Virus record (IMG/VR): IMGVR_UViG_3300042197_002762
Span: 1-64,000 of that record
Length of the DNA stretch: 64,000 bases
Source of the DNA: a virus
Reading direction: 5' to 3' (one strand)
Each line of letters begins with the position of its first letter. Position 1 is the first letter of the stretch. Of this stretch, positions 393 to 32,363 are shown one piece after another. The notes under the pieces are model-generated. The model was not told the DNA's origin and did not search any database. It saw only the letters and a program-made list of their open reading frames with translations. The position numbers were made by a program, and so were the translations under genes.

Positions 393-402
393 AATTTAAG
401 CA

Positions 403-17656: not shown

Positions 17657-17733
17657 GTAAGTTGTTGATTATGAAGTACTTACGCCGCGCCGCCGGGCGC
17701 GCCGCCGTAACCCCTTGATTTTCAACGTGCTAC
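17657..17733. repeat. 77-bp element, copy 1
   Basis: GTAAGTTGTT-N7-AAGTACTTAC, 23-bp GC core, GTAACCCCTT-N7-AACGTGCTAC. Confidence 0.9.
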
Positions 17734-17743
17734 AATTTAATGC

Positions 17744-17780
17744 AAAAAAATGCGGGGCGCAGCACTCGCCACGCCCCGCA
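17744..17780 (-). terminator. intrinsic terminator after rIIA
   Basis: TGCGGGGCG/CGCCCCGCA stem followed by a T-run on the - strand. Confidence 0.8.
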
Positions 17781-17801
17781 CCACCACACCACCACTAACA
17801 A

Positions 17802-20045
17802 TTATACTCCAGCGAGCATGAAGTCGCGGGTCGTAATGTAATCCAAGCAAGCCTCACGATGCTGCTTGTGATTGTCACGATAGGTCTGAAGGTTGTAGGC
17901 ATCAATCGCTTGCAAGACGCGCATGGCGTGAGCAAGTTTGGTTGCTTTGACTTCCATAGCGTCGAGCTTGGCACTACGTTTGGAACGGACGGCAGTAGTC
18001 TTGATGCCAATGTGACCGCAGATGGAATCAATGCAAGACTTGATCGTGGAGTCATTGGTTTGAGCTTGAAGGCTCAAGACTTCTTCCAGCACACGATGCG
18101 TGTTCGGCGCATTGGTCGCGTTGACCATCTTACGGAGTTCGCCGCGCAAGCATTGGTTCCGTGCGACAAAGTGCGTATGGATTTCGTCAGCATATAGAAC
18201 CTCGCCGCAATTAGATTGAGCTTCAATCTCCTTCAACGCATTGGTGAAGAAAGTTTTGAAGTCCATCACCTTACTGGCTTGAGCTTTCTTTAGAGTAGGG
18301 CCATTCTTGATACCGATGATGGTAGGAACAACGATATCCTTGGTCTTGGTCAAGTCAGCAAGCGTCTTGATCTTGGAGCAGCAAGACATAAGAGCAGTAG
18401 GAGACACTTCGCAACCATTGATCTTGCCCATGAACCGCTCAATCTCAACGTAGCAGTATTTCTTGGGGTCGAGATTCTTGAAGTCAACATCTTCCTCCTG
18501 CCAGTAGTCACTCTTGACCTTGTGATAGGACGAGAGATTTTTGGCATTGGGGTCAATCGAAAACACTTTGCTGGTGTGTTTGCTACGATTCGCCATGAGC
18601 GTGTTGCCATTGGCTTTACGAGTTGCGCGAGGCAGGAGAACCTTGGGCAACGTAGCCATGTCAACAATGTCAGCGTCAATCAGTCCGAGATTGTCCATCT
18701 GACGTTTGCGGTCAGCAGCATTGAGAGGCGTGAACACAATCACCTTGCCATCTTTTTGCAGGAACGGAAAGATGTGGTTGATGACTTGGTTCTGAATCTT
18801 CTTTGTGTTCTCAACGATGGTAATGTCATTGTCGAGCGTCACAAGATGAGTCAGTTCTTCGACCTTGCCACCTTTGACTATGTATGCACCACCGATGTAA
18901 CCTTTGCGCGGAGTATAGAGTCTGAATCCCTTGCTATTGGCAAAGTTGATCGTGAAGTCTTTAATGGTCTTGCCGTTATAATCGTAACCATTCTTACCGC
19001 GCATAGCGTTGCACACAACGTAGTAGGGACTATTGAAGTTGTGCATCTCACCAAGCATACGCTTGAACGACCACAGACTTTGTGCGCCCTTGAGTTGCTT
19101 GCTGATGTCAGCAACGAGGAAGTCACGAATGGCAAGGATACGCTTTTTGAGATTCGCAATCGTGCGATCCGTGTATTGCAAACCTTCACGCGAGGCAGCG
19201 ATGTCGCAGTCACCAATGGCAACGTCGAGTTCGATGTCGCAGTTAGTGAGCAAGCGTTCGATCACCGCTTCGTCGGCATTGTTCTCGTCGAGCTTGAGAG
19301 CATCCGAGCTAATGCGGTAAGCGATGTTACCCATGATGGCAAGGGCTTGACGACCATACGAGTTGCGGTCTGCTTTGAGCAAACGCCAATCGCTACCGCT
19401 ATAAAGAGGATTGCGAGTCTCGTAGGTGAAGTCAGCAGCACCACGGACAACAGGCTTGACCTTGAAGTGCTGGAACAAGTTGCGAGCAGTATTGACGAAA
19501 GTTTCGCAGTCGGCAGGTTTTACTGGAATCACAATTTCAACTCCGTTTGCATCCTTGGTAGGAGCAGACGCGAGTTTAGCGATTTGACCGATCTGCGAGG
19601 GATCAATGTAAGCGTTGTAAGTAGTCTTGATGCCGTTGAGATAGCTATTGATGACAAAGTTGTCACCATAGGCAAAAGCGGACTTACTACCAAGACCTAA
19701 CTGCCCGATGAGGGAGTTACTCTTACGCTTCGTTGATTCACCATAAAAGGCGTAAATCTCTTGAATGTCTTGTTCGGAAAGGCCAATGCCGTAGTCACGA
19801 ATCTTGAGTTCAAGAGAGAGACGAGAAGGAAGCGTGACCTCAATCGGACGATTGTGACCAGCTTCGGTGTGTGCGTCCACAGCGTTGCAGGAATACTCGC
19901 GCAAGACTGCAAGAATCTTGTCGGAATACAACTGGTTGCGGAGGACGTTGAAGATGTGAGCAAGACCTTCCTGCTTGATGCCGAAAGACACCGCGCCTTG
20001 AATACCTTGCGTGACAACATTAGCTTTGGGTTGAGTAACGATCAT
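17802..20045 (-). CDS. rIIA: rIIA-like protein (N-terminal GHKL/Hsp90-type ATPase)
   Basis: LYSDK..AVLREYSCNAVDAH, IRDYGIGL, STKRKSN..IGQLGLGSKS; start moved to ATG 20045 downstream of TTGCCA-N17-TATTCT; adjacent to rIIB. Confidence 0.85.
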   Translation of the reverse strand: MIVTQPKANVVTQGIQGAVSFGIKQEGLAHIFNVLRNQLYSDKILAVLREYSCNAVDAHTEAGHNRPIEVTLPSRLSLELKIRDYGIGLSEQDIQEIYAFYGESTKRKSNSLIGQLGLGSKSAFAYGDNFVINSYLNGIKTTYNAYIDPSQIGQIAKLASAPTKDANGVEIVIPVKPADCETFVNTARNLFQHFKVKPVVRGAADFTYETRNPLYSGSDWRLLKADRNSYGRQALAIMGNIAYRISSDALKLDENNADEAVIERLLTNCDIELDVAIGDCDIAASREGLQYTDRTIANLKKRILAIRDFLVADISKQLKGAQSLWSFKRMLGEMHNFNSPYYVVCNAMRGKNGYDYNGKTIKDFTINFANSKGFRLYTPRKGYIGGAYIVKGGKVEELTHLVTLDNDITIVENTKKIQNQVINHIFPFLQKDGKVIVFTPLNAADRKRQMDNLGLIDADIVDMATLPKVLLPRATRKANGNTLMANRSKHTSKVFSIDPNAKNLSSYHKVKSDYWQEEDVDFKNLDPKKYCYVEIERFMGKINGCEVSPTALMSCCSKIKTLADLTKTKDIVVPTIIGIKNGPTLKKAQASKVMDFKTFFTNALKEIEAQSNCGEVLYADEIHTHFVARNQCLRGELRKMVNATNAPNTHRVLEEVLSLQAQTNDSTIKSCIDSICGHIGIKTTAVRSKRSAKLDAMEVKATKLAHAMRVLQAIDAYNLQTYRDNHKQHREACLDYITTRDFMLAGV

Positions 20046-20116
20046 ATTAGTAGTAGGTTGAGTAATCAGAATAGCAGCATTTGTGTCGCATGGCAAGAGT
20101 TTTTTTGCAAAAAAAT

Positions 20117-20193
20117 GTAAGTGCCTTAAACTCAACGACTTACACGGCGCGGCGGGGCGCGGCGCTGTAAGTGCCTGGAATTGAACAGGTTAC
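20117..20193. repeat. 77-bp element, copy 2
   Basis: GTAAGTGCCT-N7-AACGACTTAC, GC core, GTAAGTGCCT-N7-AACAGGTTAC. Confidence 0.95.
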
Positions 20194-20211
20194 AACAAAC
20201 ACTATTGGAAC

Positions 20212-20251
20212 AAAAAGTTGGGGGTGAGGCCCACCACAAGCCCCACCCCCA
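20212..20251 (-). terminator. intrinsic terminator after rIIB
   Basis: TGGGGGTG...CACCCCCA stem followed by TTTTT on the - strand. Confidence 0.7.
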
Positions 20252-20268
20252 TGTCGCACCACCGACGA

Positions 20269-21117
20269 CTACCGCTTCCGCATGAAGCGACCTTTCGCAT
20301 CCCTCACATTGTAGTAAGGAGTTTCTTCCGCATCGTAGTTGAATGAGGGGGAATAATCCTCATCATCGGAAGTGAACTCCGTGTTGAGCGGTTTCCGATA
20401 AACCTGCTCAAAGTCCTTGACAACCTCGTAGCGAGCAGTCCGCAACTTCTGGCAGTCACAATCTTTCGGAACCGAAACAACATCCGAAGGATTGATCTTG
20501 ACGATCACCAAGCGCGAGTTGCCACCACCGAAGGTTTTAGCATACTCATAGCTACCAGCATGGAAACCATACGAGCAACCAACATCGGCGTCGTCGCAGA
20601 CAGCGTTGCGCGGCATTTCCAAAACCTCGCCAACACCATTGAAGAACTTGCCACTATGATGATCCATGTAATCCTCGCGGACACTCTTGTAGGCCAAGAA
20701 GTCGCCATCTTCACAGATCGGAAGATGCTTGTGTTCAAGGAACTTGTAAAGCTCCGAAACAGCACGACGAGAAGGATTCGCCATGAGTTTCTCAAGGAAC
20801 TTGGCAAGCGGAGCGAACGGCAAACCATCATCCATGAAGTCGAAGATACGATCCACGACATAGTTGTGCAAGGGTTCACCTTGGTAGTAGATCACGCCAT
20901 CGGCAATCTCGATACCGCCGACATTATCGGCATTGAACTTGCGGGTGATAGACTCTGAAACGTCGAACAGGGAGTCGAGCGTGTCAATGTCTCCAGTAGC
21001 GAGGCAAGTAAGAGCCTCGGTGAAAGACGGATGATTACAAGTCATCGTCTTGGGAGTGCCATCAATTACTGCGGTGATGGACTCGTCGGTTTTGATTAGT
21101 GCGTTTAGTGCTTTCAT
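20269..21117 (-). CDS. rIIB: rIIB-like protein
   Basis: LYKFLEH..LPI.EDGDFLAYK.V, MPRN.V.DD...CS.GFH.GS..YA, VKINP.DVVSVP.D...KLR. Confidence 0.88.
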   Translation of the reverse strand: MKALNALIKTDESITAVIDGTPKTMTCNHPSFTEALTCLATGDIDTLDSLFDVSESITRKFNADNVGGIEIADGVIYYQGEPLHNYVVDRIFDFMDDGLPFAPLAKFLEKLMANPSRRAVSELYKFLEHKHLPICEDGDFLAYKSVREDYMDHHSGKFFNGVGEVLEMPRNAVCDDADVGCSYGFHAGSYEYAKTFGGGNSRLVIVKINPSDVVSVPKDCDCQKLRTARYEVVKDFEQVYRKPLNTEFTSDDEDYSPSFNYDAEETPYYNVRDAKGRFMRKR

Positions 21118-21150
21118 CGTTTATTATATTATGCGTTTTTGGTCTGATTG

Positions 21151-21396
21151 TCAAACTGATTTCTTATCCATTTGGAAAGAAAAATGGCGAACACCAACCA
21201 GCGCGAGAATATCGTGGTTGACCTTGGAAGTCTCGCGCAATACTTTCATGTATTTGGTGAAAATTTGTTTTTTGTTAAGTCCAGCGTCCACCATCAAATC
21301 CCAGAGTTGCTTGTGCATGGCCGTGCCGTAGTGAGCAACGGCGAAAGCCAAGTCCTCATAGCGGCGAACAGAGTAGGTGTCTTTGAGAATCTTCAT
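21151..21396 (-). CDS. hypothetical protein
   Basis: 81 aa; coupled to the upstream ORF. Confidence 0.65.
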   Translation of the reverse strand: MKILKDTYSVRRYEDLAFAVAHYGTAMHKQLWDLMVDAGLNKKQIFTKYMKVLRETSKVNHDILALVGVRHFSFQMDKKSV

Positions 21397-21578
21397 TGTA
21401 GGTCTGTGATTTCGATAGCATTGACGATATACTTCTTGACATTCCCGACAATATCGGGAAACTCAATCAAAAGCGTTTGCTTGTTGTCAAGGTAAGTAAT
21501 CATAGGAACCGAATAGCCTTTTTCGCTCTGGTCGAGCTTTTCAGCAATGCGGTAAATGAGGTCGGTGCTATTTTTCAT
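21393..21578 (-). CDS. hypothetical protein (leaderless)
   Basis: TTGACA-N17-TACCTT-N6-ATG. Confidence 0.7.
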   Translation of the reverse strand: MKNSTDLIYRIAEKLDQSEKGYSVPMITYLDNKQTLLIEFPDIVGNVKKYIVNAIEITDLQ

Positions 21579-21621
21579 CCTCTAAAGGTATCGCATTTTG
21601 CGATTGGTGTCAAGTGTTTTT

Positions 21622-21698
21622 GTAAGTGCCTGGGATTCAAATACTTACGCCGCGCCGCCCCGCGCGCAATTGTAAGTCATTCATTACCAAATAGTTAT
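21622..21698. repeat. 77-bp element, copy 3 (abuts the tRNA-Lys 3' end)
   Basis: GTAAGTGCCT-N7-AAATACTTAC, core, GTAAGTCATT-N7-AAATAGTTAT. Confidence 0.9.
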
Positions 21699-21769
21699 GG
21701 AACGGGTGAGGCTCGAACTCACAACCAACGCCTTAAAAGGGCGCTGCTCTACCATTGAGCTACCATTCC
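21698..21769 (-). tRNA. tRNA-Lys(UUU)
   Basis: GCGCC-CTTTTAA-GGCGT anticodon arm, TTCGAGC T-loop. Confidence 0.92.
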
Positions 21770-21777
21770 TCAAATAG

Positions 21778-21850
21778 TGGGGCGAGTAGGATTCGAACCT
21801 ACAACCAATCGATTATGAGCCGACTGCTCTGACCATTGAGCTATCACCCC
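21778..21850 (-). tRNA. tRNA with CAU anticodon (Ile2-like or elongator Met)
   Basis: GTCGG-CTCATAA-TCGAT anticodon arm; lacks the three consecutive G-C pairs of initiator tRNA. Confidence 0.9.
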
Positions 21851-21929
21851 AGAAATTTAATCAGTCCGTAAATAGCAAACGCCCAGACCAAAATAGTTAC
21901 AGGTAAAGCTACAAATAGAACAATAGATT

Positions 21930-22178
21930 TCATAATTCAAAATATGATTGTTGATATTCAGTTTGTTCTACATCGTAGTCTGGAACCCAGATGTTCTCAT
22001 CGTTATGAGAACGACAAGCCAGTAGCAAATCTGTATGTTCCGTGTAGTCGTGATCGTAATACGGCTGCTCGGAATCTTCGTAATCAACGATTTCCCAAGT
22101 CTTGCCATCGTATTTTACATAGTCACCAATGACGAGCATTTCGCCATCGTAGTCAGCGGGGCAGATGTTTTTACTCAT
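21930..22178 (-). CDS. hypothetical acidic protein
   Basis: 82 aa; LVIGDYVKYDGKTWEIV (SH3-like). Confidence 0.7.
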   Translation of the reverse strand: MSKNICPADYDGEMLVIGDYVKYDGKTWEIVDYEDSEQPYYDHDYTEHTDLLLACRSHNDENIWVPDYDVEQTEYQQSYFEL

Positions 22179-22501
22179 AGTTTGAATATTGATTCGGGAT
22201 TAGGATAAACTTTTTTGCGTCTAATGTAAAGCCCCCAAAATTTTAGAGCGCGATCTTCGATTTGACAAAAGAGCTTGCCATGATCTAACGTCCCTCCGTA
22301 GAAGTGGCAAACCTCATGGACAACGTAGTAGATGACGAATTTTTCTCCGTGTTTGAACGCCCACTCTGGAATCGAAAACCACCCCTTCGTGGTATAGGCG
22401 CGACCCCGCTTGTTGGGTGTAATTTTGGCCTTGGGTCTAATGGGGAGTCCGAGGAATCTTGCGGTGAGATTTGCGATGGCTTGGATTTCATTTAGTTTCA
22501 T
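22175..22501 (-). CDS. SprT/zincin-like HExxH metalloprotein
   Basis: YYVVHEVCH...HGKLF. Confidence 0.75.
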   Translation of the reverse strand: MKLNEIQAIANLTARFLGLPIRPKAKITPNKRGRAYTTKGWFSIPEWAFKHGEKFVIYYVVHEVCHFYGGTLDHGKLFCQIEDRALKFWGLYIRRKKVYPNPESIFKL

Positions 22502-22560
22502 GGTGTAGCCTTACAGTATGGGATTTTGCGTGTGCGGTCAAGATATTTTTTCATTAAAAT

Positions 22561-22637
22561 GTAAGTGCCTGGAAACCAACGAGTTATGCCGCGCGGCGGG
22601 GCGCGGCGGCGTAAGTGCCTGGGAATGAACGACTTAC
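22561..22637. repeat. 77-bp element, copy 4
   Basis: GTAAGTGCCT-N7-AACGAGTTAT, core, GTAAGTGCCT-N7-AACGACTTAC. Confidence 0.95.
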
Positions 22638-22659
22638 ATAAAAAAGAATTTTTGCAAAG

Positions 22660-22688
22660 AAAAAACTTGACAGGTTGCCCTGTCAAGT
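22660..22688 (-). terminator. intrinsic terminator after the DUF932 gene
   Basis: CTTGACAGG-GCAA-CCTGTCAAG followed by T6 on the - strand. Confidence 0.85.
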
Positions 22689-22706
22689 CTTTCTGAGTTT
22701 GTTCGC

Positions 22707-23486
22707 TTAGGCGAGGACTGCTTCCGCATCCTCAACCCTCGCCAGCGCAACGCCAGCGAGAGGGTCGAGAAGTCCGTGCAGAGAGTCGCTCCGCTTGGGC
22801 AGTGCCAGCACGTTGCCGCGCATGACGTTGGTGAACGAGTTGTGCAAGCCCCACAGGTTGCGTTGCTCTGACCACTCGGCGTGTTCAGGGGTGTGCCACT
22901 GGTCGAGAACGTCCGCCAGTGCCGTCTTGCTGACCGCGCCAACGCGATACGCTTTGGCGATGAGGTCATGCGCCTCAAGGTCGTTGATCGAGCGAGCCTG
23001 ATAAGCCTCGATGCGCTTGGCGTTGTTGCCCCAAGTGTTCAGCAGTTTGCCGAACGCACCGGACAGGAGCATGGGCAGGTCGCGCATGATGAACTTGGTG
23101 TGGCGACGAGCGATCTTGATCTCGTTGTGGAAGGCGAGATTGTCGCAGACGAACGGAGCCGAACCAGCGTTGATGCCAGCAGGGAACGATTTGTCGTGCG
23201 AGTTACGCAGACCGATCACAGTGCCGATGTTCTCCTCTTGCGAGAAGTTGGGGATTCCCGCGACTTGGAACAAGCCGAAGTAGCGGAGACCATTGCGAGC
23301 AAGGGCGTGAGCCTCTTGCGTGATGCTGAGACCAGCGTTGATCACAACCTCGCGCAGACGCTCGACGAGAGCGAAGTGCGGGATGGGCATCCACGTTTCC
23401 GTGGGCGCAGGAGTTGCGATTTGCTGAACTTCAGTGGATTCCACGGCGTGACCGCCGCAGTGCAGTGTTAGGTTTAGGTTTCTCAT
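22707..23486 (-). CDS. DUF932-family protein
   Basis: ETWMPIPH..LVE, GLRYFG, IGLRNSHDKS, FVCDNLAF, LWGLHNSFT. Confidence 0.8.
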   Translation of the reverse strand: MRNLNLTLHCGGHAVESTEVQQIATPAPTETWMPIPHFALVERLREVVINAGLSITQEAHALARNGLRYFGLFQVAGIPNFSQEENIGTVIGLRNSHDKSFPAGINAGSAPFVCDNLAFHNEIKIARRHTKFIMRDLPMLLSGAFGKLLNTWGNNAKRIEAYQARSINDLEAHDLIAKAYRVGAVSKTALADVLDQWHTPEHAEWSEQRNLWGLHNSFTNVMRGNVLALPKRSDSLHGLLDPLAGVALARVEDAEAVLA

Positions 23487-23573
23487 ACTTCATAAGAATA
23501 CGTTGTTTTGCGTGACAGTGCAAGCGGTTTTTTTGAATTTGATTGAAAATATTTTTATGCCTTTCGGCAAAAC

Positions 23574-23589
23574 TTGGCACGGTTCTTGA
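23574..23589 (+). promoter_or_regulatory. sigma54-like -24/-12 box upstream of element copy 5
   Basis: TTGGCACG-GTTC-TTGA; the GG is 26 bp before the element start. Confidence 0.55.
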
Positions 23590-23601
23590 ATGTGAAAAGT
23601 C

Positions 23602-23678
23602 GTAAGGCGTTGATTTTCAACGACTTACGCGGCGCGGCGGGGCGCGCCCTCGTAACCCCATGATTACGAGGGCTTTAC
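23602..23678. repeat. 77-bp element, copy 5
   Basis: GTAAGGCGTT-N7-AACGACTTAC, core, GTAACCCCAT-N7-AGGGCTTTAC. Confidence 0.95.
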
Positions 23679-23680
23679 GC

Positions 23681-23851
23681 CTATTTGAGGAATTTTGCGA
23701 CTTGGATTCGGTTGGCCTTCTTCAGTAGGTCAGTGCGACCCAAGAAACCAGCTTTCTTCCGGCGCGACAAGACAGAGACAACACCAACTTCCTTGCGGAA
23801 GCGAACAGTCTCGCCCTTGTAGTTGTAGATAGCACCTTCGATGAGTTTCAT
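23681..23851 (-). CDS. small basic hypothetical protein (56 aa)
   Basis: MKLIEGAIYNYKGETVRF...; start reassigned; GGAGG-like AGGAGG upstream. Confidence 0.65.
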   Translation of the reverse strand: MKLIEGAIYNYKGETVRFRKEVGVVSVLSRRKKAGFLGRTDLLKKANRIQVAKFLK

Positions 23852-23867
23852 TATATTTTCCTCCTTT

Positions 23868-24092
23868 CTATTCTTCGTCATCCCCAAACATGGAGTCCCA
23901 CTCTTGGGGAGTGATACCCGTTTTGATGAACTCACGTTCACCAGCGGACAGCATGGGGAAAGCGTCTTGGATGAGCATCCCCGTTTGCCACAGGGTTGCA
24001 CGTTTCCCATACTCCTTGGGGGGGAGAGGGATTTCCATCTGGTTGACTTTGCCAGTGAAGGGAGAACGACGAGTGATAGTGATTTTGTTCAT
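23868..24092 (-). CDS. hypothetical phage protein (leaderless)
   Basis: LIQDAFPMLSAGEREFIKTGITPQEWD; TTGCAA-N17-TACATT-N6-ATG. Confidence 0.8.
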   Translation of the reverse strand: MNKITITRRSPFTGKVNQMEIPLPPKEYGKRATLWQTGMLIQDAFPMLSAGEREFIKTGITPQEWDSMFGDDEE

Positions 24093-24130
24093 ATTGCTAA
24101 TGTATGGGATTTTGAGAAGGATTGCAAGGA

Positions 24131-24856
24131 TTATTTTTCAAAAACATACGACCAGTAGCGCGAATCCTGCTTGTCTTGAATCGCGTCCCAATAGAGACAC
24201 CGAGCGATGTAGCAAGGAACATCGTAGGCGCGGCACATACTAATCCAATGCGCTTCGATGTTATCGTAATGTTTTTCGTCTTTAGTTTGGTCGAGTCCGT
24301 AGGCTTGGAACATATGAGTGTCCATGCAGACAACCTCGCACTTGTCGGGATGCATCATTTCCAGAGAGAAGGAAACTTTTGCTTTGCCAAGACCAAGCAC
24401 TTCACCAACAAGCTCGTCACGATGGCCGCGCCAATCGGCGGGAGCGTGAGAGTATTTCGGAATATCTTTCCAGAACTTTTGCTGGAACTGCCACACAAAC
24501 TTTGTGCGATTGTTGTGCAAGCCAACGCCGCTATGCTTGAGCTTGTTGAGAAGAACTTGCTGGTCATGCCACCAATCGAGAGTCTTGATGGCGTTGTAAC
24601 CATTGACGTTGGACTTCCAACTGGTATGGACTGACATAAAAGCAAACAGCCAACGCAACATGGAGTCTTGCGTTCCCTTGGGCGCGATGGAATTCCAGTA
24701 GTTGGTGTATGACACAATGCGCGAGTGGTCGAGAGTGTCAAAGAATTTCTCAACGCGAACGTATTGCGGATTGCGCGTAGGCTTGAGTTCAAGCTCTGGC
24801 TGCACAAGAGCATCAGAGGAGCAACGCATAGGGAGAGGCAGTTGTGTGGTGATCAT
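24131..24856 (-). CDS. HhH-GPD superfamily N-glycosylase/DNA lyase (Ogg-like)
   Basis: RDELVGEVLGLGKAKVSF helix-hairpin-helix followed by CMDTHM (catalytic Asp position). Confidence 0.75.
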   Translation of the reverse strand: MITTQLPLPMRCSSDALVQPELELKPTRNPQYVRVEKFFDTLDHSRIVSYTNYWNSIAPKGTQDSMLRWLFAFMSVHTSWKSNVNGYNAIKTLDWWHDQQVLLNKLKHSGVGLHNNRTKFVWQFQQKFWKDIPKYSHAPADWRGHRDELVGEVLGLGKAKVSFSLEMMHPDKCEVVCMDTHMFQAYGLDQTKDEKHYDNIEAHWISMCRAYDVPCYIARCLYWDAIQDKQDSRYWSYVFEK

Positions 24857-24908
24857 GTTCCAAGGATAGCCCTATTTGAAAATTTTGTCAACTGGTTTTT
24901 TATAATTT

Positions 24909-25818: not shown

Positions 25819-26082
25819 TTACGCCACAGATTTTCCAAAGAGCGATACGACTTCCCTATCAACGATCTCGTCGAAGCGGAACCTACGAACACCTTTGCCG
25901 AAGCAGTAGGCGGTGATTCCATTAGCGAACCCATCGAAGGGACGAGAAACGTAGTAGGTATGAACCTCATTGTTTCCGTGATCGGTGTAAGGCCGATATT
26001 TCAGACGATACACAGGATTGGTGAACTGGCCCAGCTTGGAGTCAGCGATTGCGAGTTTGACTTTATTTAGTAGTGCTTTCAT
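25819..26082 (-). CDS. stand-alone WYL-domain protein (87 aa, leaderless)
   Basis: YRLKY...V.RP...ITAYCFGKGVRRFRFDEI resembles the WYL AYC..R..R.FR.DRI motif; TTGACT-N17-TATTCT-N6-ATG. Confidence 0.65.
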   Translation of the reverse strand: MKALLNKVKLAIADSKLGQFTNPVYRLKYRPYTDHGNNEVHTYYVSRPFDGFANGITAYCFGKGVRRFRFDEIVDREVVSLFGKSVA

Positions 26083-26196
26083 TTTTATAGAATAAGTCTT
26101 TTTGCGTTCAAAGTCAACGGGTTTTTTCCAAAAAAAATTTTCACAAATATCCAAAATAGTATTGACAAAATAGCTAAATAGTGATAGGTTAAATAG

Positions 26197-26448
26197 ATGG
26201 ATAGAAATAGTTTACAATTAATAATTAATAATAATAAAGCATTACAAGACTTGGATAGATACTTCAAGGATAGTGGAGAATTGCATCTCATATGTGACAA
26301 AATAGGTAGGGAGCGTGACCCTGAGAACAGGGAACAGCTTATCAGTAAGATGAAGTGGAAGAATAAACAATTTGCAGAATCAATTGTCAAGTTGGCATCG
26401 ATGATAACTACACTAAAGCATAATCCACAAAGTCCTATCGCTCAATGA
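26197..26448 (+). CDS. hypothetical helical protein, the only + strand gene in the island
   Basis: 83 aa, AT-rich; TTGACA-N17-TAGGTT upstream; stop codon inside element copy 7. Confidence 0.65.
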   Translation: MDRNSLQLIINNNKALQDLDRYFKDSGELHLICDKIGRERDPENREQLISKMKWKNKQFAESIVKLASMITTLKHNPQSPIAQ

Positions 26449-26503
26449 CTTACGACGGGCGGCGGGGCGCGCCGCCGTAAGTGGTTGATGTCCAACGCTT
26501 TAC
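26427..26503. repeat. 77-bp element, copy 7 (left arm degenerate)
   Basis: ACAAAGTCCT-N7-AATGACTTAC, core, GTAAGTGGTT-N7-AACGCTTTAC. Confidence 0.88.
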
Positions 26504-26577
26504 GCCACTTCCGATTTGGGCAAAAAGTCAAACGCCCGTTTGAAGGGGCGTTGACTATGACACAACTATGACAAAGG

Positions 26578-27036
26578 TTAGTCCTCTGTCTCGCTCACCC
26601 AATCCGGCGCGCCGCCGTCGAGTTGCTGGTAGATGTGCGTTGGAGTTTTGGCGAACAGCATGAAACTTTCGCGTGGGAAAGATTCAAACTCTGCGCGTGC
26701 AGCTTGCGCGGCGTCACGGCGAAACTTTTCGCCATTCGGTTTCTTGTGAAAGCGCGGACGCGCCTTGTATTGTTCGCTCACCGGAGAGTCTTGCCAATTT
26801 GTCATAGTTTCGTATGTCATAGCGCGAAGCATATCCGCTTCCGTGGAGAGGAAGTAGGAGAAGTTATCGGAGAGTTCGTGTAAGTAGCTGCCGAGTTCAC
26901 CGATGCCAGTTGCGCCCCAGTTGAAGAAGCGGTTGAACGTGCGTTCAACTTGTTCGCGTGTTCCGTTGAGGCCGACAGCGATGCCGTTGCCGTATGCGCT
27001 GATGATGATGTTTGCTTGTTCCATTGTGTTTGTCAT
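26578..27036 (-). CDS. hypothetical protein
   Basis: 152 aa; followed by a terminator-like hairpin at ~26525-26555. Confidence 0.75.
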   Translation of the reverse strand: MTNTMEQANIIISAYGNGIAVGLNGTREQVERTFNRFFNWGATGIGELGSYLHELSDNFSYFLSTEADMLRAMTYETMTNWQDSPVSEQYKARPRFHKKPNGEKFRRDAAQAARAEFESFPRESFMLFAKTPTHIYQQLDGGAPDWVSETED

Positions 27037-27040
27037 AAAA

Positions 27041-27175
27041 TTAATTTCCGCGAGCGTCGATGTCCTGCCAGTATTTCAGTTCTTGCTCGTCGAGCCAAGC
27101 CTCAAATTCAGAGGCAAACTCGTCGCTTTGGATTTGCGTGGTGAAGTCGTCGTTGATGATGGAGTTCGCTTGCAT
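27041..27175 (-). CDS. small acidic protein (44 aa, leaderless)
   Basis: MQANSIINDDFTTQIQSDEFASEFEAWLDEQELKYWQDIDARGN; not in the ORF track; paralogue of 31568-31780. Confidence 0.75.
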   Translation of the reverse strand: MQANSIINDDFTTQIQSDEFASEFEAWLDEQELKYWQDIDARGN

Positions 27176-27278
27176 GAGAAAAGAATAGCACAGGGGCGCG
27201 AGAGTGCAACGGATTTTTTTGCATTTTTAGAAAGTATTTTTGTTGACGATTTCTCAAACGGGCGTTTGAATCCCAAAG

Positions 27279-27294
27279 TTGGCACGCTTTCTGC
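27279..27294 (+). promoter_or_regulatory. sigma54-like -24/-12 box upstream of element copy 8
   Basis: TTGGCACG-CTTT-CTGC, GG-N10-GC spacing; the GG is 26 bp before the element. Confidence 0.65.
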
Positions 27295-27306
27295 TCCTTG
27301 TTTTGC

Positions 27307-27383
27307 GTAAGTCGTTCATTTTCAAGCACTTACGCTGGCGCGGGGGGCGCGCCGCCGTAAGTCGTTGATTTACAACGCTTTAC
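27307..27383. repeat. 77-bp element, copy 8
   Basis: GTAAGTCGTT-N7-AAGCACTTAC, core, GTAAGTCGTT-N7-AACGCTTTAC. Confidence 0.95.
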
Positions 27384-27384
27384 G

Positions 27385-27540
27385 TTACCGCAATCTATCG
27401 CGCAAGTCGAGGCAACGCTCCCACGCTATGACAAACATTTTCGAGAGTGTCATAAAGCCGTGACGTTCCAATTTTTGCGCGAGGCTGAAGCAACCTTCCG
27501 ACAAGCGGAACAGATTTTTTCGTGCGATTAGGTTTGTCAT
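27385..27540 (-). CDS. hypothetical protein (51 aa)
   Basis: MTNLIARKNLFRLSEGCFSLAQKLERHGF...; start reassigned. Confidence 0.6.
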   Translation of the reverse strand: MTNLIARKNLFRLSEGCFSLAQKLERHGFMTLSKMFVIAWERCLDLRDRLR

Positions 27541-27617
27541 AGTTTTCCGTTCTGATGAATTGCAAAGGCACACGCAGCCACCACTACAAGCAGGCAGATG
27601 ATTTCCATAGGGGTTCA

Positions 27618-28301
27618 TTATACACCAACTTGCACCACGAATCCAGAAGTATCGCGGAGAGCTTTGCCCTTTGCTTTGAGTCCGACGATCACACCTTGCG
27701 GATCGAGAAAGCGTAAGTCGCTTTCGTCGCCGTTTATGACAGTCTTGCCGAGGTAGGTTTCGGGCAACTCATTAAAGACAACCGCCACGTTGCCACCAGC
27801 AGCAACAACGGCGTGGACGCGATGCTGATTGTCCTCCTTACGCGAGAAAGTAAGATGATAATTTTTCGGTAGTTCGCCATTCAAAAATTGCATCATGCGC
27901 TGAAGGTTCGGCGTGTAGTCGTAAAACTGAATTGACGGAAAACGCGCCATGTCGATGAGCATATGCCAAGGAAGGTCAGAAAGCACGTTCGGACGCACAG
28001 CAACGGGCATTTTATTTTTAACGCTCCATTTTTCTGCGTTGTGCAATTCCTTATTCATCTGTGCGAGAAACGTGTTGCGCTCGTCGATGAAAAAACGAGA
28101 CTTTGCAAGGCGAGCGTCTTGCACGTTTGAGAAAATGCCCATGCCCGAAGTGTCGAGACAAGCGGCCTCGCATCCTGCCGAGCGATGCGGACAGAATTGT
28201 TTTCCGCTTTTGCCAGCGGGAGAGAGTGACAGGCCGTAAGTGCGCCAGCCGAGTTTCTCGCCTTTTTTGATTTTGGTGTTGTTGGTGCTGAGTAGTTTCA
28301 T
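27618..28301 (-). CDS. Gp88-like conserved phage protein
   Basis: MKLLSTNNTKI, LSLSPA..SG..CP...GC.AACL, RPNVLSD, FYDYT, YHLTFS, NVAVVF, GDESDLRFLD, IVGLKAKG. Confidence 0.75.
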   Translation of the reverse strand: MKLLSTNNTKIKKGEKLGWRTYGLSLSPAGKSGKQFCPHRSAGCEAACLDTSGMGIFSNVQDARLAKSRFFIDERNTFLAQMNKELHNAEKWSVKNKMPVAVRPNVLSDLPWHMLIDMARFPSIQFYDYTPNLQRMMQFLNGELPKNYHLTFSRKEDNQHRVHAVVAAGGNVAVVFNELPETYLGKTVINGDESDLRFLDPQGVIVGLKAKGKALRDTSGFVVQVGV

Positions 28302-28326
28302 GGTGATGATTTTTGCAGATTTTAAG

Positions 28327-28566
28327 TTAGAGGGCAAGAGCTTTTTTCACCCTTGCGATGTCGCGCTTACTGTGCGTGTAGAGTTTCGCGTCGATGCTTT
28401 CCAGATTGGAGAGCAAACGATAGGCGGCGATTTTTTCGCGTGCGTTACGGCGCGCAAACTTTGAGACGATGCTGTTGCGGTCGCGCAAGCTGTTCGTGAT
28501 GTCCTTTTGAAGCGCAACACGCGCATGAATGAGGGCTTCGTAGAGTTCGCGTTTGGTGATGTTCAT
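28327..28566 (-). CDS. hypothetical basic protein
   Basis: 79 aa; TTGCAA-N17-GAAAAT-N6-ATG. Confidence 0.7.
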   Translation of the reverse strand: MNITKRELYEALIHARVALQKDITNSLRDRNSIVSKFARRNAREKIAAYRLLSNLESIDAKLYTHSKRDIARVKKALAL

Positions 28567-28604
28567 ATTTTTATTTTCTCCGATTTTGAGTTAGGTTGCA
28601 AGGA

Positions 28605-28760
28605 TTATTTTTCGAGAAGTGCCGCAAGCTGTTTGCGAAGCTTGCCCAAGTGATTGAGGAGGACAGTCGTTTGATCGTCGAGCATAGGATCGAGAAGATC
28701 CTCCGCCACTTGTTCGATTTTTGCGGTGAGGGTTTGGATTTGGATTTCTTTCTCTGTCAT
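28605..28760 (-). CDS. small helical protein (51 aa, leaderless)
   Basis: MTEKEIQIQTLTAKIEQVAEDLLDPMLDDQTTVLLNHLGKLRKQLAALLEK; not in the ORF track. Confidence 0.75.
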   Translation of the reverse strand: MTEKEIQIQTLTAKIEQVAEDLLDPMLDDQTTVLLNHLGKLRKQLAALLEK

Positions 28761-28873
28761 GCTTACAATGTATCACAGCCGCGTAAAAATGCAACGATTT
28801 TTTTTCAATTCCGTAAAAGTATTTTTGTTGACACTTTTTCAAACAGGCGTTTGAACCACTATGACATTCATTG

Positions 28874-28889
28874 TTGGCACGGTTCCTGC
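28874..28889 (+). promoter_or_regulatory. sigma54-like -24/-12 box upstream of element copy 9
   Basis: TTGGCACG-GTTC-CTGC; the GG is 26 bp before the element. Confidence 0.65.
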
Positions 28890-28901
28890 GCACTATGTTG
28901 C

Positions 28902-28978
28902 GTAAGTCGCTGATATCCAAGCACTTACGCCGCGCGGCGGGGCGCGCCGCCGTAAGTCGTTGATTATTAGTGCTTTAC
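28902..28978. repeat. 77-bp element, copy 9
   Basis: GTAAGTCGCT-N7-AAGCACTTAC, core, GTAAGTCGTT-N7-AGTGCTTTAC. Confidence 0.95.
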
Positions 28979-29110
28979 GATGTAGTCGCTGATCTGGCCG
29001 TTAGCCGCCATGCGCTCAAGCCATGTGGAAGTATTGTAGTGCCACAGGCTCATGGCGAGCAGTGAAACAGGCGTTTGAATTCCGAGCAGTTGTTTTATCC
29101 AGTTTGTCAT
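28967..29110 (-). CDS. hypothetical protein (47 aa)
   Basis: MTNWIKQLLGIQTPVSLLAMSLWHYNTSTWLERMAANGQISDYIVKH; stop codon inside element copy 9. Confidence 0.55.
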   Translation of the reverse strand: MTNWIKQLLGIQTPVSLLAMSLWHYNTSTWLERMAANGQISDYIVKH

Positions 29111-29114
29111 AGTG

Positions 29115-29300
29115 TTATGACACCGATTCTTCGTCGGTGCCGAGAATTTTTTCCATGCGCTCTTTCAGTAGCGTATAGACAAGGTGCGCGTCATGCACAG
29201 CGTCAACGCAGTCTTTCCGCATACCTTCCATGAGGAAGTCTTTTGCAAAGAAGCGAACGCCATTTGATTCAAGGGCTTTTTGTATGTTGGGCGTGATCAT
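29115..29300 (-). CDS. hypothetical protein
   Basis: 61 aa; KDCVDAVHDAHLVYTLLKER. Confidence 0.7.
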   Translation of the reverse strand: MITPNIQKALESNGVRFFAKDFLMEGMRKDCVDAVHDAHLVYTLLKERMEKILGTDEESVS

Positions 29301-29497
29301 GATTCAGAATCATCGAGGAACATTCCGTCGAAAGCAAGAGGTTTTTCCAGATGGTCAAACATGGTGTTGACATCTTTTTGCAGTTCCTTCTTTTCGTGCA
29401 AGTTGAGGCAAGCTGTCAAAAGCATTACCAGAATGAGGATGAAGGTTGAGAGAGACATTACATAGGCAATGCTGTCGAATGTGATGTATTTTTTCAT
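29297..29497 (-). CDS. small membrane protein
   Basis: MKKYITF... with one TM segment; start reassigned. Confidence 0.6.
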   Translation of the reverse strand: MKKYITFDSIAYVMSLSTFILILVMLLTACLNLHEKKELQKDVNTMFDHLEKPLAFDGMFLDDSES

Positions 29498-29501
29498 GTA
29501 A

Positions 29502-29591
29502 TTATTTTTTTCGGGAATCAGCCCAGAGGATGAGGAACGCGCAAGCGGAAGGGAAGATGCACAGGTAAAAGAGTGGAACCCAGATTGACAT
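29502..29591 (-). CDS. small membrane peptide (29 aa)
   Basis: MSIWVPLFYLCIFPSACAFLILWADSRKK; fills the gap between neighbours exactly. Confidence 0.5.
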   Translation of the reverse strand: MSIWVPLFYLCIFPSACAFLILWADSRKK

Positions 29592-29594
29592 AGT

Positions 29595-29810
29595 TTATTT
29601 ATATGATCCAACAGGGATGTTGGGCGTTGCAGAGTAGACCGCTTCCAGAAAACGACTTTCATCAAAGCGCGGATTCTGTTCGGTGAAGTATTTCGCAAAG
29701 TCCAAGGCGAGGACTTCGACAGCTTCGTATTCTCCGATGGGAGCGTGTTGTTTTTCAGCGAGACGCTTGCCCAAGATTTTTGCGATGGCCTCGAATTGTT
29801 TTTTTGTCAT
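29595..29810 (-). CDS. hypothetical phage protein (NPRFD family, leaderless)
   Basis: MTKKQFEAIA...FTEQNPRFDESRFLEA; TTGACC-N17-CACAAT-N6-ATG. Confidence 0.8.
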   Translation of the reverse strand: MTKKQFEAIAKILGKRLAEKQHAPIGEYEAVEVLALDFAKYFTEQNPRFDESRFLEAVYSATPNIPVGSYK

Positions 29811-29857
29811 GGTGTTATTGTGGTTTGTTTTGTGGTTAGGGTCAAGAGATTTTTTCA

Positions 29858-30037
29858 CTACCAGCGGTTGCGGTAGCGGTCGAGCCTTTCGGCGCGGTTC
29901 ATGCGCTCGATCTCACGCTCGTAAGCGTCAGGGTTGATCTTGTAGGCAGGATCTTCACGATCAATGCCGAGTGGGAGGTCGAGGGTTGCTTCGCGTTCTT
30001 CGTCGCGCCAGCTTCTGGTGTATCCGTTTCTGTTCAT
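29858..30037 (-). CDS. small charged protein (59 aa, leaderless)
   Basis: MNRNGYTRSWRDEEREATLDLPLGIDREDPAYKINPDAYEREIERMNRAERLDRYRNRW; not in the ORF track. Confidence 0.75.
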   Translation of the reverse strand: MNRNGYTRSWRDEEREATLDLPLGIDREDPAYKINPDAYEREIERMNRAERLDRYRNRW

Positions 30038-30163
30038 GTATACAGAATAGCACAGGGCCGCGAAAATGCAACGATTTTTTTTGCGATTGTTGAAAGTATT
30101 TTTGTTGACGTTTCGGCAAACGAGTGTTTGAAAAAAAGACTATGACAAAGAGTGTCATAATGC

Positions 30164-30240
30164 ACAAGTCACTGATATTCAAGCACTTACGCTCGCGCGC
30201 GGGGCGCGCCGTCGTAAGTCGTTGATATTCAACGCTTTAC
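30164..30240. repeat. 77-bp element, copy 10
   Basis: ACAAGTCACT-N7-AAGCACTTAC, core, GTAAGTCGTT-N7-AACGCTTTAC. Confidence 0.93.
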
Positions 30241-30392
30241 TCGTCAGACCAACCGCGAAAAAACTTCGCCTTGCGCGCGAATTTTTTCTTGACACGCATG
30301 GCGAACGAAGGCTTGCAAGTTGTCTTGCGAACACTTCGCTCTATCGCGCGCGCGAGTGGGCGCGTGTCGATTGTCATAATGATTTTGCTCAT
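30237..30392 (-). CDS. small basic protein (paralogue of 32360-32536)
   Basis: IDTRPLARAIERSV; stop codon in the right arm of element copy 10. Confidence 0.6.
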   Translation of the reverse strand: MSKIIMTIDTRPLARAIERSVRKTTCKPSFAMRVKKKFARKAKFFRGWSDE

Positions 30393-30393
30393 G

Positions 30394-30624
30394 TTAGTTG
30401 ACTCCGTAAGAAAACTTTTTGTCGCGCAGTTGCTGAACCTCACGCGCCAGAACGAGGTTCGTTCCACACAAGAGATTCAGTTTGTGCTCGTGCATGGTGA
30501 TGGTGTGCAAGGCTTGTGCCAGCAGTTCTTTCAACTGTGTCATATCAGCCTCCTGCGCCTGGATAGTTTTTTCATGCTTGATGAGAGTCTCCAGCGATTT
30601 TATGATGCCGTCTTGGTTTGTCAT
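30394..30624 (-). CDS. small coiled-coil protein
   Basis: MTNQDGIIKSLETLIKHEK...; start reassigned. Confidence 0.7.
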   Translation of the reverse strand: MTNQDGIIKSLETLIKHEKTIQAQEADMTQLKELLAQALHTITMHEHKLNLLCGTNLVLAREVQQLRDKKFSYGVN

Positions 30625-30628
30625 AGTG

Positions 30629-30790
30629 TTAGTGTTTAGGCTTGGGTTCGGGGCGAGCACACGGATCGTTGCGGTGACGCTCCTCGGCGTAGCCGAAAAG
30701 GATGTCGAACGCTTGTTCGGGTGTGAGGTTATCTTCGGGTTCGTCGAAGTTCCAGACTTCGGGCCAGCCAGTTGTGGTGTTTTCTGTCAT
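30629..30790 (-). CDS. small acidic protein (leaderless)
   Basis: TTGCCT-N17-TATACT-N6-ATG. Confidence 0.7.
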   Translation of the reverse strand: MTENTTTGWPEVWNFDEPEDNLTPEQAFDILFGYAEERHRNDPCARPEPKPKH

Positions 30791-30810
30791 ATTGAAAGTA
30801 TAGGAGATGC

Positions 30811-31014
30811 TTACTCCAAAGGCAAGCAAATTGTGGACTGGATCGCCAACCCGCACAGGTGCGAGTAGTCGTAACCTTTTTGGTCGAGAGTTTTTTTCAT
30901 CTGTTCGATGCGGCGCGTGGCCTTATTGATCGCCGTGCGAAGCGTGGCCGCTTCGATTTCGATGATGACCGGAAGCTCTCCGGTCTTGGTGAAGGTGATG
31001 ACGTATGGTTTCAT
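30811..31014 (-). CDS. hypothetical protein
   Basis: TTGACT-N16-TAAAAT-N7-ATG. Confidence 0.7.
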   Translation of the reverse strand: MKPYVITFTKTGELPVIIEIEAATLRTAINKATRRIEQMKKTLDQKGYDYSHLCGLAIQSTICLPLE

Positions 31015-31045
31015 GGTTAGAATTTTAGCAGGTTAGTGGTGAGAG

Positions 31046-31222
31046 TCAAGCGATTTTCTTGACCGCTACCTTCCAGTAGGGGAAGTAAAGCCCCAAGTAG
31101 CGAGCGGTGATTTGCACACCATCTTTGCACCAGATGGTGCGTTTGTTGTTTTGCGAGACGAAGGGGATGCCCTTCATGGCGTTGAGGACGATTTCCTTTT
31201 TGTGGGTTCCTTTTGTTATCAT
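31046..31222 (-). CDS. hypothetical protein (leaderless)
   Basis: TTGCGT-N16-TATAGT-N6-ATG. Confidence 0.7.
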   Translation of the reverse strand: MITKGTHKKEIVLNAMKGIPFVSQNNKRTIWCKDGVQITARYLGLYFPYWKVAVKKIA

Positions 31223-31335
31223 GCTTACACTATACCACAGATCGCGCAAAACGCAAGGGATTTTTTTGCGATTAGCGAAAGTATTTTTGTTGACGTTTTG
31301 TCAAACGGACGTTTGAATCACTATGACATTCATTG

Positions 31336-31351
31336 TTGGCACGGTTCATGA
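31336..31351 (+). promoter_or_regulatory. sigma54-like box upstream of element copy 11
   Basis: TTGGCACG-GTTC-ATGA; the GG is 26 bp before the element. Confidence 0.5.
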
Positions 31352-31363
31352 GCAGCATATTGC

Positions 31364-31440
31364 GTAAGTCGCTGATTATCAAGCACTTACGACGGGCGGC
31401 GGGGCGCGCCGTCGTAAGTCGTTGAATACCAAGGGTTTAT
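31364..31440. repeat. 77-bp element, copy 11
   Basis: GTAAGTCGCT-N7-AAGCACTTAC, core, GTAAGTCGTT-N7-AAGGGTTTAT. Confidence 0.95.
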
Positions 31441-31567
31441 GCAACATGGGATTTGGGCAAATTGAAACGCCCGTTTAGAACGGGCGTTTCGCTTCCTCAT
31501 CGTTTATTCCCGCGTCATGGAGACACGCATCGAAACGTTCGGAAAGTTATGACACAGCTATGACAAA

Positions 31568-31780
31568 CTAGTTGTCCCAGCCCTCCTGCTCGCCCCAATC
31601 CGCGAGGTCGTCGAGGCCCGACCCATCACCAGGCCATTGGCCCTCGCACCCATCGTAGGGTTGCGGTTCGGGTTCCTGCTCGACGGCAGGCTCTGCCGCG
31701 AACGTGCCGTGAGCCTCCTCATGCTCGCTGGCGTATTCGTCGGATTGCGGTTGCGTGTTGAAGTCGTCGGTGATGTTCAT
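31568..31780 (-). CDS. small very acidic protein (leaderless)
   Basis: MNITDDFNTQPQSDEYASEH...DDLADWGEQEGWDN; TTGCCA-N17-TATCCT-N6-ATG. Confidence 0.8.
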   Translation of the reverse strand: MNITDDFNTQPQSDEYASEHEEAHGTFAAEPAVEQEPEPQPYDGCEGQWPGDGSGLDDLADWGEQEGWDN

Positions 31781-31823
31781 AGTGTTAGGATATGATGAGT
31801 TGAGGTTAATGGCAAGAGATTTT

Positions 31824-32168
31824 TTATGCAGCCAAGGCAGGGCGCACACGGAACACAAGCTGTAGCCTTTCGGGGTGAACCTTGCCAGCGACGAAAGCCG
31901 CAAGACTATCGCTGTCAAAGTTGAAGCGCGAGAGAGGATGAGAGTTAGCCCAGCGCAATCCATCGGGCAAGCCGAGGTCGATGAGTTGCTGCACCTCTGC
32001 GTTAGAGGGCACAGAGTAGGGCGACCAGCCGAGAGTGGCGATGGTCTTGCCAGACTCGACGCTGACGAGCTCATGCCAGAGTTTAGTGCAATCGCCATCG
32101 AAGTCCTCCGAGACGACGAGCGTGCAAAGGGTTCCGTTGACGTTGAATTGTGTTTCTTTATCTTTCAT
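31824..32168 (-). CDS. hypothetical protein (leaderless)
   Basis: TTGCAT-N16-TATTCT-N6-ATG; 114 aa. Confidence 0.8.
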   Translation of the reverse strand: MKDKETQFNVNGTLCTLVVSEDFDGDCTKLWHELVSVESGKTIATLGWSPYSVPSNAEVQQLIDLGLPDGLRWANSHPLSRFNFDSDSLAAFVAGKVHPERLQLVFRVRPALAA

Positions 32169-32258
32169 GCTTATAGAATAGCACAGCGCGCGGAAAATGC
32201 AACGATTTTTTTTGCGATTGTGCAAAGTATTTTTGTTGATGAAAAAAAGTTTTGGGAG

Positions 32259-32274
32259 TTGGCACGCTTCATGA
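32259..32274 (+). promoter_or_regulatory. sigma54-like box upstream of element copy 12
   Basis: TTGGCACG-CTTC-ATGA; the GG is 26 bp before the element. Confidence 0.5.
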
Positions 32275-32286
32275 ATGTGTGTTTGC

Positions 32287-32363
32287 GTAAGTCGTTCATT
32301 ATCAAGCACTTACGTTTCGCGGCGGGGCGCGCCGGCGTAAGTCGTTGAACGACAACAACTTAC
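32287..32363. repeat. 77-bp element, copy 12
   Basis: GTAAGTCGTT-N7-AAGCACTTAC, core, GTAAGTCGTT-N7-AACAACTTAC. Confidence 0.95.

Follow-up and report, generated by a model that had tools for sequence, protein, structure and literature searches.

Large phages keep their anti-defence and host-takeover genes in early islands that change quickly, and the organisation and reshuffling of such islands are known in detail only for the promoter early stem-loop (PeSL) elements of T4-type phages. A PeSL is a loose composite, in which a stem-loop acts as a terminator and occupies a variable position within or near a promoter (Arbiol, Comeau and Krisch 2010, PMC2839356; Comeau et al. 2014, PMC4122927). 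Among bacterial repeats, the BIME-1 or RIB/RIP elements of Escherichia coli combine a repetitive extragenic palindrome (REP), an IHF-binding linker and an inverted REP (Boccard and Prentki 1993, via PMC3333891); both topological insulation and protein scaffolding have been proposed for the bacterial interspersed mosaic elements, or BIMEs (PMC3333891). Here we describe a 77-bp double-palindrome element, 12 copies of which divide the early island of an uncultured freshwater phage into small gene cassettes. The DNA analysed, termed the window, comprises bases 1-64000 of a 178,478-bp phage assembly (IMG/VR record IMGVR_UViG_3300042197_002762), and the island occupies 17600..32400 on its minus strand. 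The phage belongs to a clade unrelated to the T4-type phages, and its boundary module is much more rigid than a PeSL and resembles a protein site.

The original prediction, an earlier annotation of this window, had listed 12 copies of the element, and every start that it gave was correct. Each copy is composed of a 27-bp palindrome-like half, a 23-bp core of ∼91% GC and a second 27-bp half, and the starts run from 17657 to 32287. The half-site pattern had 20 matches at ≤2 mismatches, compared with 0.22 expected from shuffles. Scanning of the whole genome restricted the element to 17657-32363, and all 15 good 27-mers of the genome fell within 77-bp units. When non-redundant related loci were added to those of the window, the GC core measured 23 bp in 82/82 cases and the distance from GTAAGT to ACTTAC was 15 bp in 31/31. 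The element had been called invariant, which is accurate for this geometry and inaccurate for the letters, whose mean pairwise identity among copies is 0.69. Nor are the 27-mers true palindromes, as had been claimed: none is perfect, their arms typically differ at 2-4 of 12 positions, and some halves (those at 17707, 23652 and 26427) are degenerate.

When IMG/VR was scanned for the exact pattern, the element turned up in 20 stretches belonging to ∼16 contigs, always as arrays. These include two complete relatives whose rIIA proteins are 81% identical to that of the window, G001 (170.5 kb, 13 copies) and G002 (166.5 kb, 11 copies), and in both the copies sit in the corresponding GC-rich island. 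Family statistics were taken from 88–91 unique copies, with 88 used for letter conservation and pairing and 91 for later counts. Mean identity was the same within a genome as between genomes (0.69 in both cases). Concerted evolution was rejected on this ground, and since paralogues are no more alike than copies from different genomes, each copy appears to be kept by selection rather than by homogenisation.

Scanning IMG/VR again, now for the arm motif and with the spacer length left free, led to at least 118 stretches from other contigs. Many other clades use versions of the element with other core lengths; among the matches listed, the GC-rich cores were of 14, 15, 18, 21–24, 26 and 31–33 bp, 21 and 23 being the commonest. 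As an intergenic module of phages, the element is real, rigid and widely distributed. Because one arm motif serves many clades, each with its own fixed core, the letters point to a widely conserved reader of the arms, probably encoded by the host rather than a clade-specific phage protein. Bacterial metagenome-assembled genomes (MAGs) yielded only three contigs with the element, each of 1.2–1.6 kb and probably mis-binned phage DNA; the 27-mer pattern was absent from 400 sampled bacterial genomes of that MAG's class, and arrays were not found in the bacterial genomes searched. Neither the element nor the island had a DNA match among 50,697 records of cultured phages. The element is undescribed in the searchable literature, where a search with the arm sequence returned unrelated primers only.

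The original prediction had overlooked the direction of the genes. Island genes and tRNAs are on the minus strand, so that in the sense view each element separates the end of the preceding unit from the next promoter. The first copy in the direction of transcription is copy 12 (32287..32363). It is followed by copy 11 (31364..31440), which lies after a terminator at 31482-31468, copy 10 (30164..30240), after a terminator at 30281-30265, copy 9 (28902..28978), copy 8 (27307..27383) and copy 7 (26427..26503), the last after a terminator at 26552-26531. The outer arm of copy 6 (24909..24985) overlaps the 3' end of tRNA-Cys (24975-25047) by ∼10 nt, and a promoter follows at 24891-24863. Copy 5 (23602..23678) is succeeded by copy 4 (22561..22637), which comes after the terminator of the DUF932 gene and has its promoter ∼19 nt further on. 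Copy 3 (21622..21698) adjoins the 3' end of tRNA-Lys (21698-21769) and has TTGACA 8 nt after it. Copy 2 (20117..20193) follows the rIIB terminator at 20251-20219, and the A-rich tract and -35-like TTGCCA of the rIIA promoter begin ∼20 nt after the element. Copy 1 (17657..17733), with atypical arms, stands between the rIIA terminator (17782-17749) and an AT-rich promoter region with tRNA-Asp. All 12 copies are listed on the minus strand.

The claim that separate terminators precede the element thus stands for rIIA, rIIB, the DUF932 gene and the copies at 26427, 30164 and 31364, but not for the two copies that adjoin tRNA genes. Overall, an intrinsic terminator precedes six or seven copies, two adjoin a tRNA, and the remainder follow a stop codon. 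The element itself contains no U-tract, and the terminator scan put intrinsic terminators outside the elements; with separate terminators or tRNAs before most copies, we agree that it is probably not simply a terminator. Also borne out was the claim that the cassettes have their own promoters, as a promoter follows every copy, always outside the conserved 77 bp. For copies 1–4 and 6, the A-rich tract and -35-like hexamer start 8–20 nt after the element. For copies 8–12, ∼110 further nt are conserved (27161-27270, 28746-28855, 30023-30132, 31208-31317 and 32154-32263, respectively) and the promoter is ∼125 nt away; the conserved stretch contains a TTGGCACG box, a short palindromic hairpin and an A-rich tract.

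The box resembles a sigma-54 promoter (TTGGCAYG-N4-YTGM) and was found exactly 27 nt before the element in 5/12 window copies and 44/87 copies overall. In the window it is on the plus strand at 23575-23601, 27280-27306, 28875-28901, 31337-31363 and 32260-32286, one for each of copies 5, 8, 9, 11 and 12; copy 10 has none. It is on the same side of the core in 42/44 cases and antisense to the genes; transcription from it would begin approximately at the element's first base. Only about half of the copies have C at the -12 position. A sigma-54 DNA-binding domain was not found in three complete genomes (G000, G001 and G002), and the phage encodes no clear activator. The core and the AT-rich 27-mer centres have a polarity that follows both the direction of transcription and the box, core orientation being shared by the same 42/44 boxed copies.

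A short palindrome, TCAAACG-N2-3-CGTTTGA, recurs in the same neighbourhood. It forms part of the terminators at 26531-26552 and 31468-31482, and it is present without a T-tract in the promoter-side flank of copies 8–11 (27190-27230, 28800-28830, 30060-30100 and 31260-31290), where it may be a second protein site. Within cassettes there is a further family of promoters (29807-29855, 31011-31059, 31777-31825 and 21575-21623). They combine an A-tract with a TTGAC-type -35, and the start codon comes so close to the -10 that the mRNAs may be leaderless.

Certain letters of the element scarcely vary. Among the 88 copies, positions A3, A4, T10, A18, T24, T25, C37, C38, A53, A54, T60, A68, T74 and T75 are invariant or nearly so. 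On the sense strand the 27-mer reads GTAA-N4-TTGA-WWA-TCAA-N4-TTAC, and its positions 14–26 are the IHF consensus WATCAA-N4-TTR, confirmed in the literature, with the invariant letters on the specified positions and the variable letters on the N4. This match, too, had been missed by the original prediction. The upstream 27-mer fits the consensus perfectly in 56/91 copies and with at most one mismatch in 82/91; for the downstream 27-mer the corresponding counts are 30/91 and 69/91. Exact matches to the arm motif are about three times as frequent in inner arms (74/91 and 65/91) as in outer arms (28/91 and 23/91), and the degeneracy of the outer arms is mirror-symmetric about the centre of the element rather than strand-specific. 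Pair counts revealed no compensatory change in any of the four possible helices. Given this lack of compensation, the invariant stems with variable loops and the mirror-symmetric outer arms, we read the element as a probable protein site on duplex DNA, not as RNA. The paired protein-binding sites that had been proposed accord with the invariant letters, the lack of covariation and the fixed spacing.

We tentatively propose, with somewhat less than even confidence, that the element is an architectural boundary or insulator of the host-IHF type, and that cassette turnover uses it as a patch for recombination as well. It would offer two docking sites in mirror arrangement for a sequence-specific DNA-bending protein, most likely the host's IHF, each backed by a weaker outer copy and the two held at a fixed distance by the stiff 23-bp GC core. 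With protein bound and the DNA sharply bent, a compact nucleoprotein boundary would arise between the terminator or tRNA that ends one cassette and the promoter that opens the next. Such a boundary could shield strong early units from their neighbours by blocking read-through and supercoiling driven by transcription, as has been proposed for BIME/RIB repeats, and the geometry upstream of the promoter may depend on it as well. What the sequences establish is the element with its rigidity, its constrained letters, its placement and the excess of breakpoints described below; the identity of the binding protein, the bending and the insulation are inferred. No HU or IHF gene (PF00216) was found in the three complete genomes. 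Should IHF or another bending protein of the host bind, host nucleoid machinery would partition the early region into insulated, exchangeable units, which would offer a testable model for cassette turnover as well as a practical marker for accessory-gene islands and cassette borders in metagenomic phage genomes.

Several observations weigh against this proposal. The consensus carries little information, with 16 strict matches in the window where 9 are expected by chance. IHF sites are normally not palindromic. Binding by IHF explains neither the invariant C27 and G51 nor the strong conservation of both inner arms, of which the downstream one is usually one mismatch away from the consensus. It also does not account for a rule, described below, by which a CG inner arm is almost always paired with a GC one. 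Finally, the distance from element to promoter takes the two ranges given above (8–20 nt or ∼125 nt), so the element is not a fixed part of the promoter.

The BIME-1/RIB repeats resemble the element: both are short extragenic repeats, dispersed and placed where transcription units end, and both join GC-rich palindromic parts to an IHF-type site. The plan is reversed, however: the element has two IHF-like sites around one GC core, whereas BIME-1 has two GC-rich REPs around one IHF site. The element also has a fixed length, no GTAG tag and no RAYT/Y1 transposase, while BIMEs are tied to RAYT transposases. Unlike BIMEs, it is borne by phages and was not encountered in the bacterial genomes searched.

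The arms could instead be operators for a dimeric DNA-binding protein, encoded by the phage or delivered in the virion, that coordinates, represses or times the early island. Dyad symmetry of the arms, stronger conservation of inner than of outer arms and fixed spacing would all suit such an array, as would the confinement of the elements to phage DNA, apart from the three tiny MAG contigs. We consider this distinctly unlikely. A helix-turn-helix protein, for which the original prediction had recommended a search, was not detected among ∼30 island and flanking open reading frames (ORFs), nor was any other DNA-binding family. The arm motif accompanies cores of many lengths, and the contigs concerned need have no regulator in common. 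The elements lie upstream of promoters at a variable distance, not over them.

The inner arms obey a rule that is a clean sequence constraint without an obvious explanation. They are of two types, differing only by CG or GC at arm positions 7-8, and nearly every copy with typed arms pairs one of each: CG with GC in 24, GC with CG in 25, CG with CG in 2 and GC with GC in none (Fisher p = 1.5e-12). Perfectly complementary inner arms were found in 1/91 copies, the modal count being exactly 2 mismatches. At positions 20/58 the combinations are GG in 36 copies and CC in 35, with Watson-Crick pairs at 3%, and their linkage has z = 25. Linkage as the cause of the rule was rejected, since intervening core positions reach only z ≤7. 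Both arrangements occur with the same core and gene orientation (labelled in the sense view B' then A in copy 2, and A' then B in copy 8). Orthologues can differ, the copy at 28902 being arranged opposite to its counterparts L023:4043 in G001 and L025:7908 in G002. The wider family shows the same avoidance, as perfect complementarity of the N4 pair was observed 6 times among the matches listed, compared with 17.9 expected. The simplest reading is selection against a perfect inverted repeat able to extrude or fold, with both half-sites staying readable; alternatively, the arms could face each other in a functional folded form.

A folded form is the basis of another explanation, in which the element acts as an RNA or single-stranded DNA hairpin that stabilises or processes read-through transcripts, or as a folded strand recognised in the manner of attC or REP. 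The sense strand is indeed predicted to form one long hairpin, with energies from -24 to -32 kcal/mol and z-scores from -1.8 to -4.8, a strong fold that results from the repeated arm motif. Strong covariation of the inner-stem positions 20/58 as obligate mismatches, depletion of perfect arm complementarity in the wider family as well, and an orientation tied to transcription all suit this idea. An RNA structure was nevertheless rejected: none of the four helices showed compensatory covariation, invariant stems with variable loops are the opposite of what is typical for RNA, and Rfam matches were to tRNAs only. With the U-tract lacking and the six or seven copies behind efficient-looking terminators unlikely to be transcribed often, we regard the folded-strand explanation as improbable.

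Cassette exchange had also been predicted, and this part fared well: cassette content and order differ among the window, G001 and G002, with breakpoints enriched at elements. Where the window and G001 have a single element, G002 has one element and a 460-bp cassette more, between L025:14384 and L025:14951. The G001 element at this junction, L023:8409, is a chimera, its left half and core matching one of these G002 elements and its right half the other, which places a crossover in or near the core. G002 has another additional unit, of 1.3 kb, between L025:7908 and L025:9186, where G001 has the one element L023:4043. Genes at 29142-29853 lie between copies 9 and 10 in the window, while their homologues in G001 and G002 are transcriptionally upstream of the element equivalent to copy 9, next to the homologue of 32776-33505.

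To measure this we compared 12 islands pairwise, counting only sites with both flanks homologous in the other genome. Synteny was broken at 76/159 element sites (48%), at 61/340 random sites (18%) and at 40/148 element-free gene junctions (27%); with a 500-bp threshold, it was broken at 32% of elements and 16% of gene junctions. Enrichment at elements is thus ∼2-fold over other gene junctions, a figure that we take as an effect size and not as a p-value, since the counts share ancestry and are not phylogenetically independent, a further point that tells against the boundary proposal. Some breakpoints fall at the internal cassette promoters instead, for example at 29853. Under the boundary proposal, the 77 bp recurring at every boundary make a homology patch, with which general recombination would delete, insert or move whole cassettes, as PeSLs do in T4-type phages.

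Such turnover might be all that the element is for. It would then be a pure PeSL-like recombination module without a role in the infection cycle, persisting through the lineage-level benefit of cassette shuffling. The likeness is considerable. Both the PeSL and the element are repeated intergenic motifs confined to hyperplastic early regions rich in ORFans (PMC2839356; PMC4122927), both set a GC-rich stem beside AT-rich sigma-70-like early promoters, and in both the motif marks the limits of indels and swaps between relatives, with crossovers inside it (here the chimeric element at an indel junction) and no dedicated recombinase. They differ in that the PeSL has no fixed length, whereas the element is a rigid 77-bp double palindrome with invariant letters, separate from terminator and promoter and without a U-tract. 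The element also matches a protein-site consensus, a reading not proposed for PeSLs, whose hosts are T4-type phages. A homology patch needs neither an exact length nor invariant letters among freely varying ones. Copies of ∼69% identity are a poor substrate for homologous exchange, they do not evolve in concert, breakpoint enrichment is only ∼2-fold, and a lineage-level benefit alone is a weak force for keeping 12 tightly constrained copies. We therefore think a purely recombinational module possible but unlikely.

Site-specific recombination had been suggested in the original prediction, with each 27-mer as a 10-7-10 core site of the tyrosine-recombinase kind, and could be integron-like or Xer-dependent. 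The array does recall attC sites in its co-oriented cassette boundaries, its imperfect inverted repeats with obligate mismatches and the 10-7-10 geometry; the central 7 bp are asymmetric and of constant polarity, and single-unit indels between relatives are bounded by elements. No recombinase had been seen in the window, which we could extend to the three complete genomes: none has a tyrosine recombinase (PF00589), a serine recombinase (PF00239) or a Y1 transposase (PF01797). The central 7 bp, which would be the spacers, differ among copies in >12 variants, and mapped crossovers are in the core or at an element edge, not at a single fixed spacer position. The element keeps its length and sequence, while attC keeps its structure and varies in both; cassettes here carry their own promoters and terminators, while those of integrons are promoterless; and the element resembles neither the attC R/L boxes nor dif. 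Site-specific recombination by a phage-encoded enzyme is largely refuted, and this explanation as a whole is very improbable.

We allow, as a speculation of low probability, that the element is the cis site of a widespread, recombinase-free cassette exchange among large phages, a 'phage integron without an integrase'. Two elements, folded by a bending protein of the host, would synapse, exchange would take place in the GC core, the non-complementary inner arms would prevent self-folding, and the various core lengths would be versions belonging to different lineages.

Two further ideas seem to us extremely improbable. One is that a MITE- or REPIN-like miniature mobile sequence has dispersed across the island, which the inverted termini and the number of copies would fit; the other, akin to the injection-control signal named in the original prediction, is that the element stops injection in the manner of T5 iss. 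As for mobility, flanking direct repeats of ≥3 nt, such as target duplications would leave, were found at 0/86 copies, relatives had no empty sites, and no transposase is encoded in the three complete genomes. Palindromes and repeats abound in the T5 iss region too, but that region is one non-coding locus and contains DnaA boxes. We set this analogy aside as not comparable, the 12 sites here being dispersed and the assembly, circularly closed with an arbitrary start, offering no genome end against which to place them.

Two irregularities of the arrays were noted. At L010:2684-3100 and L006:12244-12660, three elements follow one another at exactly 170 bp, their cores alternating in orientation; the 93-bp spacers are free of genes, each is an internal tandem duplication, and one includes a 27-mer without a core. 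These triplets look like empty cassettes or extra regulatory units. Elsewhere the GC core, or its G-run/C-run part, is flipped between orthologous positions while the arms are unmoved, as in copy 3 (flipped relative to the other window copies and to L023 and L025) and also copy 1, which suggests small inversions or template switching inside the core.

The island has ∼48% GC in a genome of ∼32%. This contrast is kept in the islands of the relatives with 81% identical rIIA (L023 and L025), so it looks maintained rather than recently imported, and the conserved genes rIIA and rIIB and three tRNAs share the high GC. Minus-strand genes with a family match are rIIA (17802-20135), the rIIB-like gene (20269-21117), the DUF932 gene (22707-23486) and a GP88-family gene (27618-28337). 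tRNA-Lys, tRNA-Met and tRNA-Cys, matched in Rfam, are all inside the island on the same strand. About 20 further ORFs have no family match, so that the cargo is mostly ORFans.

The phage terminase is only ∼25% identical to terminases of Bacillus and Clostridium phages, and rIIA matches are also distant; neither protein had a T4-like match, and a host was not identified from these distant matches. The assembly is circularly closed, its first 127 bp being its last 127 bp. Distinct from this exact overlap is an internal repeat of ∼400 bp, 96% identical, between window 1-395 and genome 176637-177031, near the arbitrary start. Two plus-strand genes outside the island may be mentioned. A RuvB-like AAA+ protein with RuvB_N, AAA and RuvB_C winged-helix matches is encoded at 10436-11374 and conserved in G001 and G002; it is the source of a weak Sigma54_activat match, and no link to the elements was found. 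Just outside the island, 14297-15208 encodes a UvdE-family UV-damage endonuclease (PF03851, E = 9e-46).

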